A stretch of 64,000 nt of DNA from Escherichia coli (GCF_050920415.1 NZ_CP169309.1); one strand, 5' to 3'. Positions 1,593 through 49,309 are shown, counted from the stretch's first letter. Numbers and translations: made by a program. Notes: generated by a model from the sequence alone, not told the origin.

Positions 1593-3569
1593 ATGTCTGA
1601 CGACATGTCTATGGGTTTGCCTTCGTCAGCGGGCGAACACGGTGTACTACGCTCCATGCAGGAGGTTGCAATGAGCTCCCAGGAAGCCAGCAAGATGCTG
1701 CGTACTTACAATATTGCCTGGTGGGGCAATAACTATTATGACGTTAACGAGCTGGGCCACATTAGCGTGTGCCCGGACCCGGACGTCCCGGAAGCTCGCG
1801 TCGATCTCGCGCAGTTAGTGAAAACTCGTGAAGCACAGGGTCAGCGTCTGCCTGCACTGTTCTGTTTCCCACAGATCCTGCAGCACCGTTTGCGTTCCAT
1901 TAACGCCGCGTTCAAACGTGCGCGGGAATCCTACGGCTATAACGGCGATTACTTCCTCGTTTATCCGATCAAAGTTAACCAGCACCGCCGCGTGATTGAA
2001 TCCCTGATTCATTCAGGCGAACCGCTGGGCCTGGAAGCCGGTTCCAAAGCTGAGTTGATGGCGGTACTGGCGCATGCTGGCATGACCCGTAGCGTCATCG
2101 TCTGCAATGGTTATAAAGACCGAGAATATATCCGCCTGGCATTAATTGGCGAGAAGATGGGCCATAAGGTCTATCTGGTCATTGAGAAGATGTCAGAAAT
2201 CGCCATTGTGCTGGATGAAGCAGAACGTCTGAATGTCGTTCCTCGTCTGGGCGTGCGCGCGCGTCTGGCGTCTCAAGGTTCTGGCAAATGGCAGTCTTCT
2301 GGCGGGGAAAAATCGAAGTTCGGCCTGGCGGCGACTCAGGTACTGCAACTGGTTGAAACCCTGCGTGAAGCCGGACGTCTCGACAGCCTGCAACTGCTGC
2401 ACTTCCACCTCGGTTCGCAGATGGCGAATATTCGCGATATCGCCACGGGCGTTCGTGAATCCGCGCGTTTCTATGTGGAACTGCACAAGCTGGGCGTCAA
2501 TATTCAGTGCTTTGATGTCGGCGGCGGTCTGGGTGTGGACTATGAAGGTACTCGTTCGCAGTCCGACTGTTCAGTGAATTACGGCCTCAATGAATACGCC
2601 AACAACATCATTTGGGCGATTGGCGATGCGTGTGAAGAAAATGGTCTGCCGCATCCGACAGTAATCACCGAATCAGGTCGTGCGGTGACTGCGCATCACA
2701 CCGTGCTGGTGTCGAATATCATCGGCGTGGAACGTAACGAATACACGATGCCGACCGCGCCAGCAGAAGACGCGCCGCGCGCGCTGCAAAGCATGTGGGA
2801 AACCTGGCAGGAGATGCACGAACCGGGAACTCGCCGTTCTCTGCGTGAGTGGTTACATGACAGCCAGATGGACTTGCACGACATTCATATCGGCTATTCT
2901 TCGGGCACTTACAACCTGCAAGAACGCGCGTGGGCTGAGCAGCTTTATCTGAGCATGTGTCATGAAGTGCAAAAGCAGCTGGATCCGCAAAACCGCGCAC
3001 ATCGCCCGATTATCGACGAATTGCAGGAACGTATGGCGGACAAAATGTACGTCAACTTCTCGCTGTTCCAGTCGATGCCGGACGCATGGGGGATCGACCA
3101 GTTGTTCCCGGTTCTGCCGCTGGAAGGGCTGAATCAAGTTCCGGAGCGGCGCGCCGTGCTGCTGGATATTACCTGTGACTCTGACGGTGCCATCGACCAC
3201 TATATCGATGGTGATGGTATTGCCACGACAATGCCTATGCCGGAGTACGATCCAGAGAATCCGCCGATGCTCGGTTTCTTTATGGTCGGCGCATATCAGG
3301 AGATCCTCGGCAACATGCACAACCTGTTTGGTGATACCGAAGCGGTTGATGTGTTCGTCTTCCCTGACGGTAGCGTAGAAGTGGAACTGTCTGACGAAGG
3401 CGATACCGTGGCGGACATGCTGCAATATGTACAGCTCGATCCGAAAACGCTGTTAACCCAGTTCCGTGATCAAGTGAAGAAAACCGATCTTGATGCTGAA
3501 CTGCAACAACAGTTCCTGGAAGAGTTCGAGGCAGGTTTGTACGGTTATACCTATCTTGAAGATGAATAA
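1593..3569 (+). CDS. speA: biosynthetic arginine decarboxylase (658 aa)
   Basis: ORF 1581-3569; start moved to ATG giving [18 protein letters not shown]. Confidence 0.95.
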
Positions 3570-5511: not shown

Positions 5512-5628
5512 GCGATGTCGCCCGTAGGCCGGATAAGATGCGTCAGCATCGCATCCGGCATTGCGGACAGGGTAACAAATGTGCCATTCAAGTCAGATGC
5601 GGCGTGAACGCCTTATCTGACCTACGTT
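5512..5628. repeat. BIME: two REP (palindromic unit) copies in opposite orientation
   Basis: gtaggccggataag...gcatccggc and gtcagatgcggcgtgaacgccttatctgacctac. Confidence 0.7.
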
Positions 5629-6678: not shown

Positions 6679-8670
6679 ATGTCCTCACGTAAAGAGCTTG
6701 CCAATGCTATTCGTGCGCTGAGCATGGACGCAGTACAGAAAGCCAAATCCGGTCACCCGGGTGCCCCTATGGGTATGGCTGACATTGCCGAAGTCCTGTG
6801 GCGTGATTTCCTGAAACACAACCCGCAGAATCCGTCTTGGGCTGACCGTGACCGCTTCGTGCTGTCCAACGGCCACGGCTCCATGCTGATCTACAGCCTG
6901 CTGCACCTCACCGGTTACGATCTGCCGATGGAAGAACTGAAAAACTTCCGTCAACTGCATTCCAAAACTCCGGGCCACCCGGAAGTGGGTTACACCGCTG
7001 GTGTGGAAACCACTACAGGTCCGCTGGGTCAGGGTATTGCCAATGCAGTCGGTATGGCGATTGCAGAAAAAACGCTGGCGGCGCAGTTTAACCGTCCGGG
7101 CCACGACATCGTCGACCACTACACCTACGCCTTCATGGGCGACGGCTGCATGATGGAAGGCATCTCCCATGAAGTTTGCTCTCTGGCGGGTACGCTGAAG
7201 CTGGGTAAACTGATTGCGTTCTACGATGACAACGGTATCTCTATCGATGGTCACGTTGAAGGCTGGTTCACCGACGACACCGCAATGCGTTTCGAAGCTT
7301 ACGGCTGGCACGTTATTCGCGGCATCGACGGTCATGACGCGGCATCCATCAAACGCGCAGTAGAAGAAGCGCGCGCAGTGACTGACAAACCGTCCCTGCT
7401 GATGTGCAAAACCATCATCGGTTTCGGTTCACCGAACAAAGCCGGTACGCACGACTCCCACGGTGCGCCGCTGGGCGACGCTGAAATTGCCCTGACCCGC
7501 GAACAGCTGGGCTGGAAATATGCACCGTTCGAAATCCCGTCTGAAATCTATGCTCAGTGGGATGCGAAAGAAGCAGGCCAGGCGAAAGAATCCGCATGGA
7601 ACGAGAAATTCGCTGCTTACGCCAAAGCTTATCCGCAGGAAGCCGCTGAATTTACCCGCCGTATGAAAGGCGAAATGCCGTCTGACTTCGATGCCAAAGC
7701 GAAAGAATTCATCGCTAAACTGCAGGCTAATCCGGCGAAAATCGCCAGCCGTAAAGCGTCTCAGAATGCGATTGAAGCGTTCGGCCCGCTGTTGCCGGAA
7801 TTCCTCGGTGGCTCTGCTGACCTGGCACCGTCTAACCTGACCCTGTGGTCTGGTTCTAAAGCAATCAACGAAGATGCTGCGGGTAACTACATCCACTACG
7901 GTGTTCGCGAGTTCGGTATGACCGCGATTGCTAACGGTATCTCCCTGCACGGTGGCTTCCTGCCGTACACCTCCACCTTCCTGATGTTCGTGGAATACGC
8001 ACGTAATGCCGTACGTATGGCTGCGCTGATGAAACAGCGTCAGGTGATGGTTTACACCCACGACTCCATCGGTCTGGGCGAAGATGGCCCGACTCACCAG
8101 CCGGTAGAGCAGGTCGCTTCTCTGCGCGTGACCCCGAACATGTCTACATGGCGTCCGTGTGACCAGGTTGAATCTGCAGTAGCGTGGAAATACGGCGTTG
8201 AGCGTCAGGACGGCCCGACTGCGCTTATCCTCTCCCGTCAGAATCTGGCGCAGCAGGAACGTACCGAAGAGCAGCTGGCAAACATCGCGCGCGGTGGTTA
8301 TGTGCTGAAAGACTGTGCCGGTCAGCCGGAACTGATCTTCATCGCTACCGGTTCTGAAGTTGAACTGGCGGTTGCTGCCTACGAAAAACTGACTGCCGAA
8401 GGCGTGAAAGCGCGCGTGGTTTCCATGCCATCTACTGACGCATTCGACAAGCAGGACGCGGCTTACCGTGAATCCGTACTGCCGAAAGCGGTTACTGCAC
8501 GCGTTGCTGTGGAAGCGGGCATTGCTGACTACTGGTACAAGTATGTTGGCCTGAACGGTGCCATCATCGGTATGAATACCTTCGGTGAATCTGCACCGGC
8601 AGAGCAGTTGTTCGAAGAGTTCGGCTTCACCGTTGACAACGTTGTTGCGAAAGCAAAAGAACTGCTGTAA
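6679..8670 (+). CDS. tktA: transketolase 1 (663 aa)
   Basis: ORF 6649-8670; start moved to ATG giving [19 protein letters not shown]. Confidence 0.95.
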
Positions 8671-8690: not shown

Positions 8691-8710
8691 AAGGGCCGCG
8701 AAAGCGGCCC
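8691..8710 (+). repeat. GC-rich hairpin aagggccgcgaaagcggccc, copy 1 (identical copy at 10144-10163)
   Basis: Perfect 8-bp stem with GAAA loop just after tktA stop; no T run after this copy. Confidence 0.5.
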
Positions 8711-8741
8711 TTCAGATTATTGGCAAAGTGCGCGTTGTTCA

Positions 8742-8776
<35 letters not shown>

Positions 8777-8810
8777 AAGATCGTGCAAATTCAATATATT
8801 GCAGGAAGTA

Positions 8811-8841
<31 letters not shown>

Positions 8842-8871
8842 TCTACCCCGGTTTCCCAGATTGCAGGCATG

Positions 8872-10119
<1,248 letters not shown>

Positions 10120-10143
10120 AGTTTTGCCTTTGCTATCAGTCTC

Positions 10144-10170
10144 AAGGGCCGCGAAAGCGGCCCTTTTTTA
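10144..10170 (+). terminator. hairpin aagggccgcgaaagcggccc + T run (copy 2 of the tktA-proximal hairpin)
   Basis: Identical stem-loop to 8691-8710, here followed by TTTTTT; overlaps stop codon of the convergent SPFH gene. Confidence 0.5.
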
Positions 10171-11076
10171 CTTAGTAGAGATAAACGGAACTGTACTGCC
10201 GGGGATCATGGTATCGGGTAGCTTACCGTCCCAACGCTCAGCAGTGGTGAGGGCAACAAGTCCGGGATTATCCCGCAGAGCTTCACCGCGCAGGCGGATC
10301 GCTTCTGCTTCAGCCGCACTTTTTAAACGAATAGTTTCAGCCTCTGCCGCGCCTCTTACGCGAATAGTCTCAGCTTCTGCTTTGGCTGCCGCTAGTTTAC
10401 TGTCTGCTTCTGCCTGGGCCTGAGTTACCGCTATTTGCGCCTGGATTTTCTCTGTTTCCAGATTTTGCTTACGTGTGGCAATGGCGACTTCTGCTTTCAT
10501 TCGATCTTCAATCGATTTTTCATAAGCGTCAGAAAAATCAATATTTTCAATCTGGACACCATCAATCACCACCGGGCCAACAACGGCTTTACGCATTGCA
10601 TTTTGCAGATCCTGAACCAGTTTTGTACGATCCTGTACCGCGCTGATGGCGGTATATTGGCCGAAAACGTTCTCCAGTTGAGTTGGCAACTGACGGACAA
10701 TCAGACGATCTTTTAATGCTTCAATGGTGTTGTAGGTGGTATAAACCGCGCCTGCTTCTGAAGGTTTAATGTGGAAGCTGACTGATACTGTCATTTGTGC
10801 CGGTTGCTGGTCGCGGCTGTAGGCCTGTAATCCCTGATAAACCACAGCCTGATTACGCGTGGAAATTTTCTCTACGCTTTCCATAAAAGGGATCTTAAAA
10901 CCCAGACCCGGCTCGGCAACTTTTACGATTTTTCCGTAGCGCAGCAAAATGCCGCGTTCACCTTCATTAACGGTGTAATACGAGAGAAATGGCAGCACAA
11001 CCACGGTAAGCACGCCAATGGCGATAGCAATAGATTTTTGTGGGCGAAATGAGGTTATTGAAACAGGCGCTTTCAT
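10168..11076 (-). CDS. SPFH/band-7 (prohibitin/HflC-like) membrane protein (302 aa)
   Basis: ORF track; N-terminal hydrophobic segment, band-7 core, Ala/Glu-rich coiled-coil C-terminus; AT-rich 375-bp upstream region. Confidence 0.8.
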   Translation of the reverse strand: MKAPVSITSFRPQKSIAIAIGVLTVVVLPFLSYYTVNEGERGILLRYGKIVKVAEPGLGFKIPFMESVEKISTRNQAVVYQGLQAYSRDQQPAQMTVSVSFHIKPSEAGAVYTTYNTIEALKDRLIVRQLPTQLENVFGQYTAISAVQDRTKLVQDLQNAMRKAVVGPVVIDGVQIENIDFSDAYEKSIEDRMKAEVAIATRKQNLETEKIQAQIAVTQAQAEADSKLAAAKAEAETIRVRGAAEAETIRLKSAAEAEAIRLRGEALRDNPGLVALTTAERWDGKLPDTMIPGSTVPFISTK

Positions 11077-11451
11077 GAGAATCTTCCTTGAGTAAAGTGT
11101 GGGAATATGTCACATGAGGTGAGGAGAAAACAGCCAACAGGTGAGAATTCAGAATCTATAAAGGGGGAGAGCGAAAAACATCGGCTAAAAAAGTATGTTT
11201 TCGAACATTCAATAGATAAATAGAGATATGCATCACAAATACATAGGCAGATAAAACATTGGTTTTGTGATAAACATAACAAACACAAACTTGACTTTAT
11301 AAGTATAAATTTCATGTTGTTGTTATTTAACATTTTATTATTTTGGTTCATGTTTTTTTTCTTCTCGCGTGCCCAATTGCTTTCATTAAATCGCACGAGT
11401 ATTTTATTTTTACCGCCGGACGGTACCCTAAAAATAAAATAAGGATAATTT

Positions 11452-19537: not shown

Positions 19538-20617
19538 ATGTCTAAGATTTTTGATTTCGTAAAACCTGGCGTAATCACTGGTGATGACGTACAGAAAGTT
19601 TTCCAGGTAGCAAAAGAAAACAACTTCGCACTGCCAGCAGTAAACTGCGTCGGTACTGACTCCATCAACGCCGTACTGGAAACCGCTGCTAAAGTTAAAG
19701 CGCCGGTTATCGTTCAGTTCTCCAACGGTGGTGCTTCCTTTATCGCTGGTAAAGGCGTGAAATCTGACGTTCCGCAGGGCGCTGCTATCCTGGGTGCGAT
19801 CTCTGGTGCGCATCACGTTCATCAGATGGCTGAACATTATGGTGTTCCGGTTATCCTGCACACTGACCACTGCGCGAAGAAACTGCTGCCGTGGATCGAC
19901 GGTCTGCTGGACGCAGGTGAAAAACACTTCGCTGCTACCGGTAAGCCGCTGTTCTCTTCTCACATGATCGACCTGTCTGAAGAATCTCTGCAAGAGAACA
20001 TTGAAATCTGCTCTAAATACCTGGAGCGCATGTCCAAAATCGGCATGACTCTGGAAATCGAACTGGGTTGCACCGGTGGTGAAGAAGACGGCGTGGACAA
20101 CAGCCACATGGACGCTTCTGCACTGTACACCCAGCCGGAAGACGTTGATTACGCATACACCGAGCTGAGCAAAATCAGCCCGCGCTTCACCATCGCAGCG
20201 TCCTTCGGTAACGTACACGGCGTATACAAGCCGGGTAACGTTGTTCTGACTCCGACCATCCTGCGTGACTCTCAGGAATATGTTTCCAAGAAACACAACC
20301 TGCCGCACAACAGCCTGAACTTCGTATTCCACGGCGGTTCCGGTTCTACTGCTCAGGAAATCAAAGACTCCGTAAGCTACGGCGTAGTGAAAATGAACAT
20401 CGATACCGATACCCAATGGGCAACCTGGGAAGGTGTTCTGAACTACTACAAAGCGAACGAAGCTTATCTGCAGGGTCAGTTGGGCAACCCGAAAGGCGAA
20501 GATCAGCCGAACAAGAAATACTACGATCCGCGCGTATGGCTGCGTGCCGGTCAGACTTCGATGATCGCTCGTCTGGAAAAAGCATTCCAGGAACTGAACG
20601 CGATCGACGTTCTGTAA
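19538..20617 (+). CDS. fbaA: fructose-bisphosphate aldolase class II (359 aa)
   Basis: ORF 19454-20617 trimmed to ATG giving MSKIFDFVKPGVITGDD. Confidence 0.95.
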   Translation: MSKIFDFVKPGVITGDDVQKVFQVAKENNFALPAVNCVGTDSINAVLETAAKVKAPVIVQFSNGGASFIAGKGVKSDVPQGAAILGAISGAHHVHQMAEHYGVPVILHTDHCAKKLLPWIDGLLDAGEKHFAATGKPLFSSHMIDLSEESLQENIEICSKYLERMSKIGMTLEIELGCTGGEEDGVDNSHMDASALYTQPEDVDYAYTELSKISPRFTIAASFGNVHGVYKPGNVVLTPTILRDSQEYVSKKHNLPHNSLNFVFHGGSGSTAQEIKDSVSYGVVKMNIDTDTQWATWEGVLNYYKANEAYLQGQLGNPKGEDQPNKKYYDPRVWLRAGQTSMIARLEKAFQELNAIDVL

Positions 20618-20640
20618 GTCATTCCTTTCTGCTTATCTCA

Positions 20641-20667
20641 AGGCCCGCTCTGCGGGTCTTTTTTTCG
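20641..20667 (+). terminator. fbaA terminator (hairpin + T7), copy 1
   Basis: aggcccgctctgcgggtc followed by ttttttt. Confidence 0.6.
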
Positions 20668-20681
20668 CCAAAAGAAAAAAT

Positions 20682-20779
20682 GCCTGATGCGCTACGCTTA
20701 TCAGGCCTACACGTATCCTGCAATATATTGAATTTGCAGGTTTTTGTAGGCTGGATAAGGCGTTAAAGCCGCATCCAGT
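20682..20779. repeat. BIME: REP - L motif - inverted REP; contains an unoccupied IS621-type target ATCAGGC-CT-AC at ~20700-20710
   Basis: gcctgatgcgctacgcttatcaggcctac + cctgcaatatattgaatttgcagg + tgtaggctggataaggcg...; same arrangement as the site occupied by the IS at 8814-10094. Confidence 0.75.
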
Positions 20780-20807
20780 ATGACAAATCGCACATTGCTA
20801 TCTGTCT

Positions 20808-20832
20808 GAGGCCCGCTCTGCGGATCTTTTTT
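20808..20832 (+). terminator. near-identical second copy of fbaA terminator hairpin + T run
   Basis: aggcccgctctgcggatc + tttttt; ~48-bp direct repeat flanking the BIME. Confidence 0.5.
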
Positions 20833-33839: not shown

Positions 33840-33990
33840 AAAGCCCTCACCGAAGCGAGGGCTTGAAGGAGAAGGGTTATGATGCGACTCGTCATCATAC
33901 TGATTGTACTGTTACTCATAAGTTTCCCAGCTTATTAACAGTCAGTCACAGGGGAGGAGCAATCCTCCCTTACCCTTACTCACTAAATTA
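33840..33990 (-). ncRNA. sibC: Sib-type antisense sRNA (antitoxin) overlapping ibsC; ends approximate
   Basis: Established arrangement for Ibs/Sib loci; hairpins flank the ibs ORF on both sides. Confidence 0.45.
33879..33938 (+). CDS. ibsC: type I toxin Ibs, 19-aa hydrophobic peptide
   Basis: Manual translation MMRLVIILIVLLLISFPAY; below ORF-track size cut-off. Confidence 0.65.
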   Translation: MMRLVIILIVLLLISFPAY

Positions 33991-34038
33991 GGTCAAAGAA
34001 TCAACGATGTCAATCAGGGCGATGCAGGTGTGTCGCCC

Positions 34039-34659: not shown

Positions 34660-34845
34660 AGGGAATCTCCGAGATGCCGCCGCAGGCTGTAACCCTTGAA
34701 CCCTTGGTTCAAGGTGAATGTGTCGTCACAGTTTTAAGGCTTCTCGGACGGACCGAGCATGCTCACCAACCGCGGAGCGCCACATTCTTGTGGTATGAAA
34801 TATCGGCTCAGGGGACTGGCCCGCTTGCGAACATCTCAGAGAAAT
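34660..34845 (-). ncRNA. ssrS: 6S RNA
   Basis: Reverse complement reads atttctctgagatgttcgcaagcgggccagtcccctgagccgatatttcatacc...ggagattccct, matching my recollection of E. coli 6S RNA. Confidence 0.9.
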
Positions 34846-48144: not shown

Positions 48145-48310
<166 letters not shown>

Positions 48311-48328
48311 CTGATGCGATACAGAGAT

Positions 48329-49309
48329 TTACTCTTCGAGCGAATAGGGCAGCGGCTCGATATGCAATGTATTCGCATCGTCACGCACGCGGAAGATGCT
48401 GTCCGGTTCCATATCGTTATTCATGACGACCTGTACCACGACCTGACCATCTTCCAGTTTTACCGCAGCCAGCACCGTACCGGTACGACGCCAGTTCTCG
48501 CCCATTTTCAGCTCTAAATCTTCACCCGCTTCCGGCAGTCGGCTGGCGCTACCTGCCAGCAGCCAGAGGGCACGTTTGTTGGCACCGCGGAATTTAGCCC
48601 GTGCCACCATCTCTTGTCCGGTATAGCAGCCTTTTTTAAAGCTGATGCCGCCCAACGCCTGGAGGTTGGTCGCCTGTGGGATAAACTGCCCGCTGTTGGC
48701 GGCATCAATCACCGGAAAACCCGCTTCAATGTTTAATGCCAGCCACTGTTGGCTATTGTTCAGTTCCGCTTCACCGCGCAGTTTATCGGTCAGCGTATTG
48801 GCGGTAGCTTCATCGGTTACGATCAGGAAACGTTCTGCCGGGTGTTCAAACCATAGCAAAGTGGTCGCGCCTTCTTTAACTACCTGTTTTTCTTTCGTAG
48901 GCAGTTCACTAAAGAGATTTGCCAGCGCGGCGCGTGCCTGAAAACCGGCAACACCAAGCAGCACACGTTCATCGTCTGGCGCGATGGTCACTTTAGAGAA
49001 CACCGCATATTTTTTCAGTTCAGTCAGTTGCGACTCGCGCACGCTGCGCCGTTCAATCCACGCAAAGCCGTCGCCGTCGCGGAACAGACGTAAATTGCTC
49101 CACATTTTACCTTTGGCGTCGCAATGGGCGGCGAGCAGGTGCTGATCTTCTGTCATCTGGCTGACATCTGCTGTCACCTGACCCTGCATATATTTTTCGC
49201 TGTCCGTGCCAGTAATGGTGGCAAGCGCCCAGTCATCAAGCGTCATCAGCGTCAGCGGTAAACGGGCAGAAGCCGTAGGCTGACGGGGAGGAAAAGGTGT
49301 AAAAGCCAT
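48329..49309 (-). CDS. ygfZ: tRNA-modifying / Fe-S cluster repair folate-binding protein (326 aa)
   Basis: ORF 48329-49375 trimmed to ATG giving [19 protein letters not shown]. Confidence 0.85.

Follow-up and report, generated by a model that had tools for sequence, protein, structure and literature searches.

Stem-loops duplicated around BIME-1 elements of Escherichia coli as probable target-site duplications

The stem-loops that occur in two copies around BIME-1 elements are probably target-site duplications, left when BIME-1 integrated into a GC-rich palindrome, usually the stem of an intrinsic or bidirectional terminator. We put the probability of this reading at about 0.7. Two examples lie downstream of fbaA and tktA in a 64,000-nucleotide stretch of Escherichia coli DNA (NZ_CP169309.1), which we call the window. 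According to an original prediction from the sequence alone, a terminator hairpin is repeated on both sides of a BIME at each of these loci. Both repeat pairs are indeed present, in direct orientation and with two occurrences each in the 64-kb window. Shuffled sequences contained no match to either pair (22 nt, exact, at tktA; 24 nt, 96% identical, at fbaA).

The hairpins are locus-specific and single in alleles without a BIME; hence they are target sequence and not part of the element. When a locus-specific repeat abuts fixed ends at many loci, duplication at insertion is its simplest origin. We infer this origin from the recurrence across loci, and we infer likewise the geometry of the breaks, one at each foot of the hairpin, that would produce it. 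Insertion of BIMEs with duplication of the target, as the prediction had suggested, thus agrees with all three observations: locus-specific hairpins, single-copy empty alleles at three loci, and fixed ends that recur at many loci.

By sequence, each of the two elements in the window is an ordinary BIME-1 (other names are RIP and RIB). A BIME-1 consists of a Y and a Z-type REP in inverted orientation around a long L linker; it occurs singly, in extragenic positions at the 3' ends of genes, and is about 140-150 bp long (PMC3333891, PMC1187871). At fbaA and at tktA we find inverted (convergent) Y and Z1 REPs and a long conserved L linker with a predicted IHF-type site. The 20-mer at the core of this linker, TGCAATATATTGAATTTGCA, is identical in both window elements and at more than 60 BIME-1 loci of Escherichia and Pseudocitrobacter. 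Both elements lie downstream of a gene, and the presence of both varies among E. coli. Conserved external flanks of 24 nt and 31 nt accompany BIME-1; the published flanking motifs are named A and B. Table 1 lists the features of the two loci.

Table 1. Features of the two BIME-1 loci in the window, in order of position.
Feature	Position	Strand	Basis or remark
tktA direct-repeat copy 1, perfect palindrome AAGGGCCGC-GAAA-GCGGCCCTT, 22 nt	8691-8712	+	T-run absent 3' on the + strand
Y-side terminal motif, tktA BIME-1 (element reversed)	8713-8742	-	8712-8727 matches TTTGTCAGCAATCTGA with 3 mismatches
Y REP, tktA BIME-1	8743-8776	-	Sequence comparison
L linker (core 8784-8803), then GTAG (8812-8815) of the interrupted Z REP	8777-8815	-	Uninterrupted allele of ATCC 25922
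IS110-family element, 1279 bp, frameshifted transposase	8816-10094	-	By-eye alignment with ATCC 25922
Z-type (Z1) REP stem-loop, tktA BIME-1	10095-10119	-	Sequence comparison
Z-side terminal motif (reverse complement GAGACTGATAGCAAAGGCAAAACT), containing ttgctatcagtct of the original prediction	10120-10143	-	Consensus GAGACTGATGACAAACGCAAAATT
tktA direct-repeat copy 2, 22-nt palindrome followed by a T-run	10144-10165	+	Called as terminator
fbaA direct-repeat copy 1 (stem-loop, T7, CGCCAAAAG(A/C)AA)	20641-20677	+	Single copy kept in BIME-free E. coli
Z-side (left) BIME-1 flank remnant aaat	20678-20681	+	Compared with consensus ...GCAAAATT, 52-locus comparison
Z-type REP, 29 nt, ending in CTAC (Z1 by the published BIME-1 definition, PMC3333891)	20682-20710	+	Exact match
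L linker, IHF-site-type core TGCAATATATTGAATTTGCA at 20719-20738	20711-20745	+	Rfam ES036/CssrF match at 20703-20745
Y REP (GTAG and imperfect palindrome), fbaA BIME-1	20746-20779	+
Y-side terminal motif atgacaaatcgcacattgctatctgtctg, containing ttgctatctgtct of the original prediction	20780-20808	+	Cross-locus consensus ATGAACAAAGCGCACTTTGTCAGCAATCTGA
fbaA direct-repeat copy 2: decayed hairpin, T6, CACCAAAAGCAA	20809-20844	+	-7.4 kcal/mol, z -0.7

At tktA, which ends at 8670, the repeat is the exact 22-nt palindrome AAGGGCCGCGAAAGCGGCCCTT. Since both copies have the identical GAAA loop, they are direct and not inverted repeats. Copy 1 forms a hairpin but has no U-tract, the next letters on the + strand being CAGATTA, and does not qualify as an intrinsic terminator. 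Copy 2 ends 2 nt from the stop codon of a convergent Band_7 gene (10168-11076, - strand). This Band_7/SPFH (prohibitin-family) gene and a 107-aa ORF without a Pfam match lie between tktA and cmtB (10168-11396, - strand). Both are absent from K-12-type strains, where the tktA terminator is unrelated.

The tktA element also hosts an IS110-family element, which separates the GTAG of the Z REP from its stem and is no part of the hairpin duplication. We set its boundaries by eye, and the junction is ambiguous by 2 nt (AG). The transposase reading frame is broken into two ORFs (9253-9900 and 8921-9169), which carry the Pfam domains DEDD_Tnp_IS110 and Transposase_20 separately; hence the element is probably inactive. 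By its length and N-terminal sequence we take it to resemble IS621.

At fbaA, which ends at 20617, the direct repeat is longer than originally described: two copies are present, as predicted, with lengths of 37 and 36 nt and a spacing of 167-168 nt around the BIME-1. The repeat reads hairpin, T-run, CGCCAAAAG(A/C)AA. Its first 24 nt are 96% identical between the copies and its next 18 nt 89% identical, copy 2 lacking one T. Copy 1 consists of AGGCCCGCTCTGCGGGTC, T7, CGCCAAAAG and AAA; it was called as an intrinsic terminator (20640-20660 plus T-run, 9 pairs, -14.1 kcal/mol, z -3.6) and is the predicted working terminator of fbaA. Copy 2 differs at three points: G>A in the stem, which disrupts the pairing, one T fewer, and G>A in CGCC. 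With its stem broken it does not qualify as an intrinsic terminator, and none was called there. In E. whittamii copy 2 has diverged further than in the window. The label terminator therefore suits fbaA copy 1 and tktA copy 2, not fbaA copy 2 or tktA copy 1.

The fbaA BIME-1 is an atypical copy: the T-run is duplicated too, and the left terminal motif lacks its outer 16-20 nt. MG1655 and E. whittamii have the same structure. Past the hairpin, the fbaA repeat continues for 20 nt up to CGCCAAAAGCAA, a sequence similar to ACAAACGCAA of the element itself. The left junction could be an alternative left end, a junction guided by microhomology or the product of later gene conversion from copy 2. Such a conversion would restore a full T-tract behind the highly expressed fbaA. 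BIME-1 copies with a short left end recur: in the window copy at fbaA, in L036/L044 and in L013 only about 12 nt of the element precede the Z REP (AAACGCAAAATT), in place of 24 nt. This form may be an alternative end, or it may derive from units of tandem arrays.

To see BIME-1 at many loci, we scanned one genome per species for the exact 20-mer of the L linker and obtained 69 stretches, nearly all from Escherichia and Pseudocitrobacter. Many copies, read from Z to Y, consist of a hairpin, GAGACTGATGACAAACGCAAAATT, a 98-bp stretch from Z1 through L to Y, ATGAACAAAGCGCACTTTGTCAGCAATCTGA and the same hairpin again. Column conservation is high up to the ends of the element and at background level beyond. 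Hence the unit is 153 bp long in the consensus: a Z-side flank of 24 nt, the Z1-L-Y core of 98 bp and a Y-side flank of 31 nt. The distance between repeat and REP is constant, about 24 nt on the left of Z and about 30 nt on the right of Y.

The ends of BIME-1 form imperfect terminal inverted repeats, GAGACTGATGACAAA and TTTGTCAGCAATCTGA. In the consensus, GAGACTGATGACAAA matches the reverse complement of the right end, CAGATTGCTGACAAA, at 12 of 15 positions; the corresponding sites at tktA are 10128-10143 and 8712-8727. These repeats account for another feature of the original prediction, the motif ttgctatc(a/t)gtct ahead of both downstream hairpin copies. We find it at 20795-20807 and 10130-10142. 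The shared sequence ttgctatcNgtct is the terminal inverted repeat of BIME-1, being the Y-side end at fbaA and the reverse-complemented Z-side end at tktA. The 64-kb window contains no further copies of the BIME-1 end motifs.

After orthologues had been collapsed, 41 independent loci remained in Escherichia and Pseudocitrobacter. Both ends are recognisable in 22 of them, and in the other 19 one end is truncated or divergent. We counted a direct repeat as abutting if its left copy ends, and its right copy starts, within a few nucleotides of the element ends. An ungapped repeat of this kind with a score of at least 8 occurs at 11 of the 22 loci. The same test gave 1.5% in 462 mismatched-flank controls, in which the left and right flanks came from different loci (p about 1e-14 by our own binomial estimate). 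Three more loci (L039, L052 and L050) carry repeats that differ by loop indels or by the choice of the representative, which raises the count to 11-14 of 22. The figure of 11 is conservative because ungapped scoring misses copies with loop indels (L039, L052).

The repeats measure 13-37 nt (median 22), and each locus has a sequence of its own. Folding turns them into stem-loops that leave, at each end, a median of 0 nucleotides unpaired, and their length tracks the size of the hairpin. The duplication takes in the whole stem-loop, foot to foot, normally with 0-3 nt of the flanking A/T tracts and without the T-tract. For repeats of at least 17 nt, the ends of the element shift by only -4 to +1 on the left and -6 to 0 on the right. 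About a third to a half of the copies with intact ends have no repeat or one of 3-7 nt (L008, L035, L026; 7 nt in L017 and L028). Targets other than hairpins have short repeats, of 7 nt in L017/L024; the 7-nt repeat of L028 is, however, the 3' arm of a hairpin abutting the left end. The original prediction had placed the insertions next to the terminator, with about 25-50 bp duplicated. Duplication there is, but the insertion is at the hairpin itself and the repeat is 13-37 nt long.

Alleles without the element were compared at three loci. The full fbaA-mscS region is present in 3,724 of 5,425 E. coli genomes, and the remainder match it as two pieces, spanning 434 instead of 601 bp. BIME-1 is thus missing at fbaA from about 31% of the genomes (about 1,700 of 5,425). 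The two BIME-free fbaA alleles that we compared are shorter by exactly 167 bp; what they retain is a single hairpin with T7 and CGCCAAAAGCAAGG. At tktA, strain WP4-S18-ESBL-09 has a single hairpin, common to tkt and the convergent Band_7/prohibitin-family gene. ATCC 25922 has BIME-1 without the IS, two hairpins and 173 bp more than WP4-S18-ESBL-09. The third locus, agp/yccJ, came from the survey: most E. coli carry its 27-nt hairpin once, and in E. coli 1919D3 and E. whittamii a copy stands on each side of a BIME-1. The suggested comparison with BIME-free regions therefore gave one hairpin copy at each of the three loci in E. coli, but it is not a clean test of ancestry at fbaA. A BIME-free region that already carries two hairpins, which would speak against duplication at insertion, was not seen at fbaA, tktA or agp/yccJ.

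The difficulty at fbaA is that the element can also be lost. Empty alleles occur there on at least four flanking haplotypes. One of them, from E. coli PI6 (L080), equals the filled allele of APEC O78 E19025 (L083) at all 26 variable columns of the flanks (about 900 bp), and the 167-bp BIME segment is the sole difference. Judged by these flanks, PI6 lost the segment very recently and precisely, between the two repeats. The filled alleles have in common an insertion that is old, with a copy 2 that has diverged, and E. whittamii has it as well. Because empty alleles lie on several haplotypes, one of which matches a filled one, and because the insertion is found in E. whittamii too, the fbaA sequences are read most parsimoniously as the outcome of recurrent precise deletion, with at least some empty alleles secondary. 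Hence the single copy at fbaA cannot stand as ancestral. The deletion probably falls within an 18-nt identical stretch, TTTTTTCGCCAAAAGCAA. Loss of the element has reportedly been noticed before, in a 1990s study that is said to mention 'excisions of a whole BIME-1'.

A protein search with MscS, meant to find an outgroup, returned E. coli variants only, and mscS DNA among genomes labelled E. coli is at least 95% identical, with no divergent lineage. A 44-nt query representing the empty site had no BLAST match, probably owing to low-complexity masking. L059 of E. whittamii has a perfect 19-nt repeat, and E. coli is not syntenic there. At the three loci checked, the BIME is either polymorphic or as old as the split between E. 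coli and E. whittamii, so all single-copy alleles could be deletions.

Gain between the repeats is seen as well as loss. In L040 (1695-2065) and L042 (2310-2695), three copies of the locus hairpin alternate with two BIME-1 units, which is the reciprocal product expected from unequal exchange between the flanking repeats. A different array occurs in L074 (about 380-1000) and L068 (about 2800-3100) of Escherichia sp. MOD1-EC7003, where at least five BIME-1 cores follow each other head to tail. A 17-nt junction in which Y-side and Z-side flanks are fused, AAGAACAACGCCAAATT, links these cores, and no hairpins separate them; BIME-1 is usually described as single-copy.

At some loci both hairpin copies seem to be maintained. 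In L010 and L057 (E. albertii, E. whittamii) and in fbaA copy 2 of MG1655 (L003), the copies differ by paired substitutions that preserve base pairing, for example GAGCCGC/GCGGCTC against GGGCCGC/GCGGCCC. Since these changes are compensatory, they suggest that both copies are kept under selection as hairpins at some loci.

How could an insertion double a whole hairpin? We tentatively propose that BIME-1 spreads by structure-directed integration at the feet of an extruded hairpin or cruciform, so that the length of the duplication is that of the palindrome, and that the process is reversible and amplifiable; we consider this model possible, though we would not bet on it. The two strands would be opened on opposite sides of the palindrome, with one break at each foot of the stem-loop. 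The duplication runs from foot to foot regardless of its length, which indicates that the breaks are placed by structure. In B-DNA the two feet would be 13-37 bp apart, and extrusion as a hairpin or cruciform would bring them side by side at its base. Joining of the element and gap filling would then yield hairpin, element, hairpin.

From then on the two hairpins would be direct repeats like any others. Precise loss of the element between them would create presence/absence polymorphism, and unequal exchange would create arrays in which three hairpins alternate with two elements. Each hairpin copy would either be selected as a hairpin, with compensatory changes, or decay like fbaA copy 2 of the window. 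The upstream gene would keep a hairpin and lose most of its U-tract, and the T-tract would be displaced beyond the element, as at tktA.

Among other explanations, the strongest is that a nascent strand stalled at the terminator hairpin copies a BIME-1 located elsewhere, returns upstream of the hairpin and copies it again, a copy-choice process that needs no element-specific enzyme. Palindromes are established obstacles to replication, and slippage-type deletion is demonstrably supported by the fbaA repeats. The atypical fbaA copy is the main support for this explanation: its left junction lacks the terminal motif, target and element share microhomology there (CCAAAAGCAA against ACAAACGCAA), and such microhomology fits copy-choice or gene conversion better than clean transposition. 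The recurrence of short left ends in L036/L044 and L013 points the same way. However, template switching would predict ragged junctions that depend on homology, whereas most repeat-flanked copies have ends that are constant within a few nucleotides (-4 to +1 and -6 to 0). Microhomology to the very different target hairpins is also not obvious. We therefore regard copy-choice as unlikely, if still worth keeping in mind.

Two further explanations dispense with duplication of a target, and we consider both extremely improbable. The original prediction offered as an alternative that terminator and BIME form a composite repeat, in which the hairpins travel as part of a dispersed element. A hairpin at one or both ends of most loci, and the same motif ahead of the downstream copy at both window loci, would fit this idea. 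Yet the hairpin is different at every locus and single in alleles without a BIME, conservation between copies ends exactly at the ends of the element, and the common motif is the element's own terminal inverted repeat; the alternative was thus abandoned. It is just as hard to believe that a BIME landed between tandem terminators that were there already, or that the two hairpins match by chance or convergence. Repeats of 22 nt (exact) and 24 nt (96% identical) never arose in shuffled sequences, abutting repeats occur at 11 of 22 loci against 1.5% in the controls, and none of the BIME-free alleles seen at three loci has two copies. The same coincidence would moreover be needed at at least 14 independent loci.

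If target-site duplication is the right reading, an enzyme has to be found for it, and TnpA_REP, the REP-associated Y1 nuclease, is a candidate. TnpA_REP binds single-stranded REP hairpins and cuts C↓T (the arrow marks the cut), including TGCC↓TGAT beside Z-type iREPs (PMC3333891). Both ends of BIME-1 read C↓TGA on the same strand, similar to this in-vitro iREP-I site, TGCC↓TGAT. On the other side, TnpA_REP requires in cis a REP with GTAG and a stem mismatch (PMC3333891), and the related IS200/IS605 family transposes without target duplication (PMC3333891, PMC2817692). The absence of duplication in this family, the need for a REP in cis and target breaks that are not C↓T all argue against TnpA_REP.

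Two specific schemes with this enzyme were rejected. A TnpA_REP cut at C↓T at the 3' foot of the target stem does not agree with the real ends, which are not C↓T (for example CCCTT↓, on both strands, at tktA). Excision from the same strand at the two C↓TGA sites, as in IS608, would leave hairpin-GAGAC↓TGA-hairpin, which the empty alleles do not show. We saw no transposase or IS with ends matching BIME-1 in the window, and a comparison of the BIME-1 ends with those of IS10 and IS50 gave no convincing match. We know of no parent IS with BIME-1 ends. The published E. coli RAYT locus, yafL-fhiA, is outside the window.

BIME-1 shares features with several known systems. Like the MITEs ERIC/IRU and Correia, it is short and non-coding, has terminal inverted repeats, is flanked by direct repeats of the target and is polymorphic among strains. 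In MITEs, however, the duplications are short, of fixed length and set by the transposase (PMC3184786), whereas those of BIME-1 measure 13-37 nt and are set by the secondary structure of the target. Of the two MITE features, BIME-1 thus has the terminal inverted repeats and not the short duplication of fixed length. A review describes REPs as lacking MITE signatures (PMC3184786). In REPINs, which depend on RAYT/TnpA_REP proteins (HUH Y1 enzymes related to IS200/IS605), a REP doublet is the proposed mobile unit, as in BIME-1. Two inverted REPs with GTAG are found in BIME-1 too, but insertion without duplication is not what we see at 11-14 of the 22 loci.

Other mobile elements show one half of the pattern each. 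The autonomous, DDE-type elements of the IS1549/IS1634 group and IS1630 duplicate tens of base pairs of target, with a length that varies per insertion; to our knowledge, no report makes these duplications match a stem-loop, foot to foot. Group IIC introns, elements of the IS110 family such as the one at 8816-10094, and IS1397 (in REPs) land on intergenic stem-loops and so avoid genes. As far as we know, such palindrome-seeking elements insert beside or inside the hairpin with a duplication of none or 2-4 bp, and none of them doubles the whole hairpin. A list of IS elements that target REPs is available (PMC1525189).

REPs and BIMEs are the most abundant repeats of E. coli, and the question of how they reach new sites goes back to the 1980s. 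The principal biochemical study of the nuclease calls the mechanism for REPs unknown and asks for bioinformatic clues (PMC3333891). The footprint described here constrains the models, for it combines fixed ends of the element with a duplication that equals the stem-loop of the target. A peel-and-paste reaction on a single strand alone cannot give a duplicated hairpin. Structure-directed integration, if true, would be the first sequence footprint of a REP or BIME colonising new sites and would imply either that the REP-associated Y1 nuclease acts on two strands or that another enzyme is at work. Targeting of hairpins would explain why BIME-1 is found at the 3' ends of genes and why its presence or absence among strains is so precise. 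Insertion shifts the T-tract of the upstream gene's terminator past the element, and 3' UTRs should therefore change.

That BIME-1 is present in some isolates and absent from others was known already (PMC3333891, PMC1187871). The papers on REPs, RAYTs and REPINs and the repeat surveys that we consulted do not mention a duplication of the flanking stem-loop. As far as we checked, a duplication defined by structure is an undescribed property of BIME-1, although the literature of the 1990s may hold a prior notice. If flanking repeats were reported there, the value of our analysis would lie in the large-scale confirmation and in the link to hairpins.

Some features of the window stand apart from the duplication. 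Two other REP clusters (48147-48330 and 5524-5626) combine a 36-nt Z-type REP with a Y REP over a short linker, and Rfam naRNA4 matches at 48150-48227; no hairpin duplication around either cluster was obvious by eye. Rfam ES036/CssrF (RF02751) scores above its gathering threshold precisely at both L linkers, at 20703-20745 (- strand) for fbaA and at 8777-8820 (+ strand) for tktA. This 'sRNA' family appears to model the linker of BIME-1. Unrelated to BIME-1, a SIB RNA (33863-34013) and 6S RNA (34662-34845) lie on the - strand, both at the Rfam gathering threshold.
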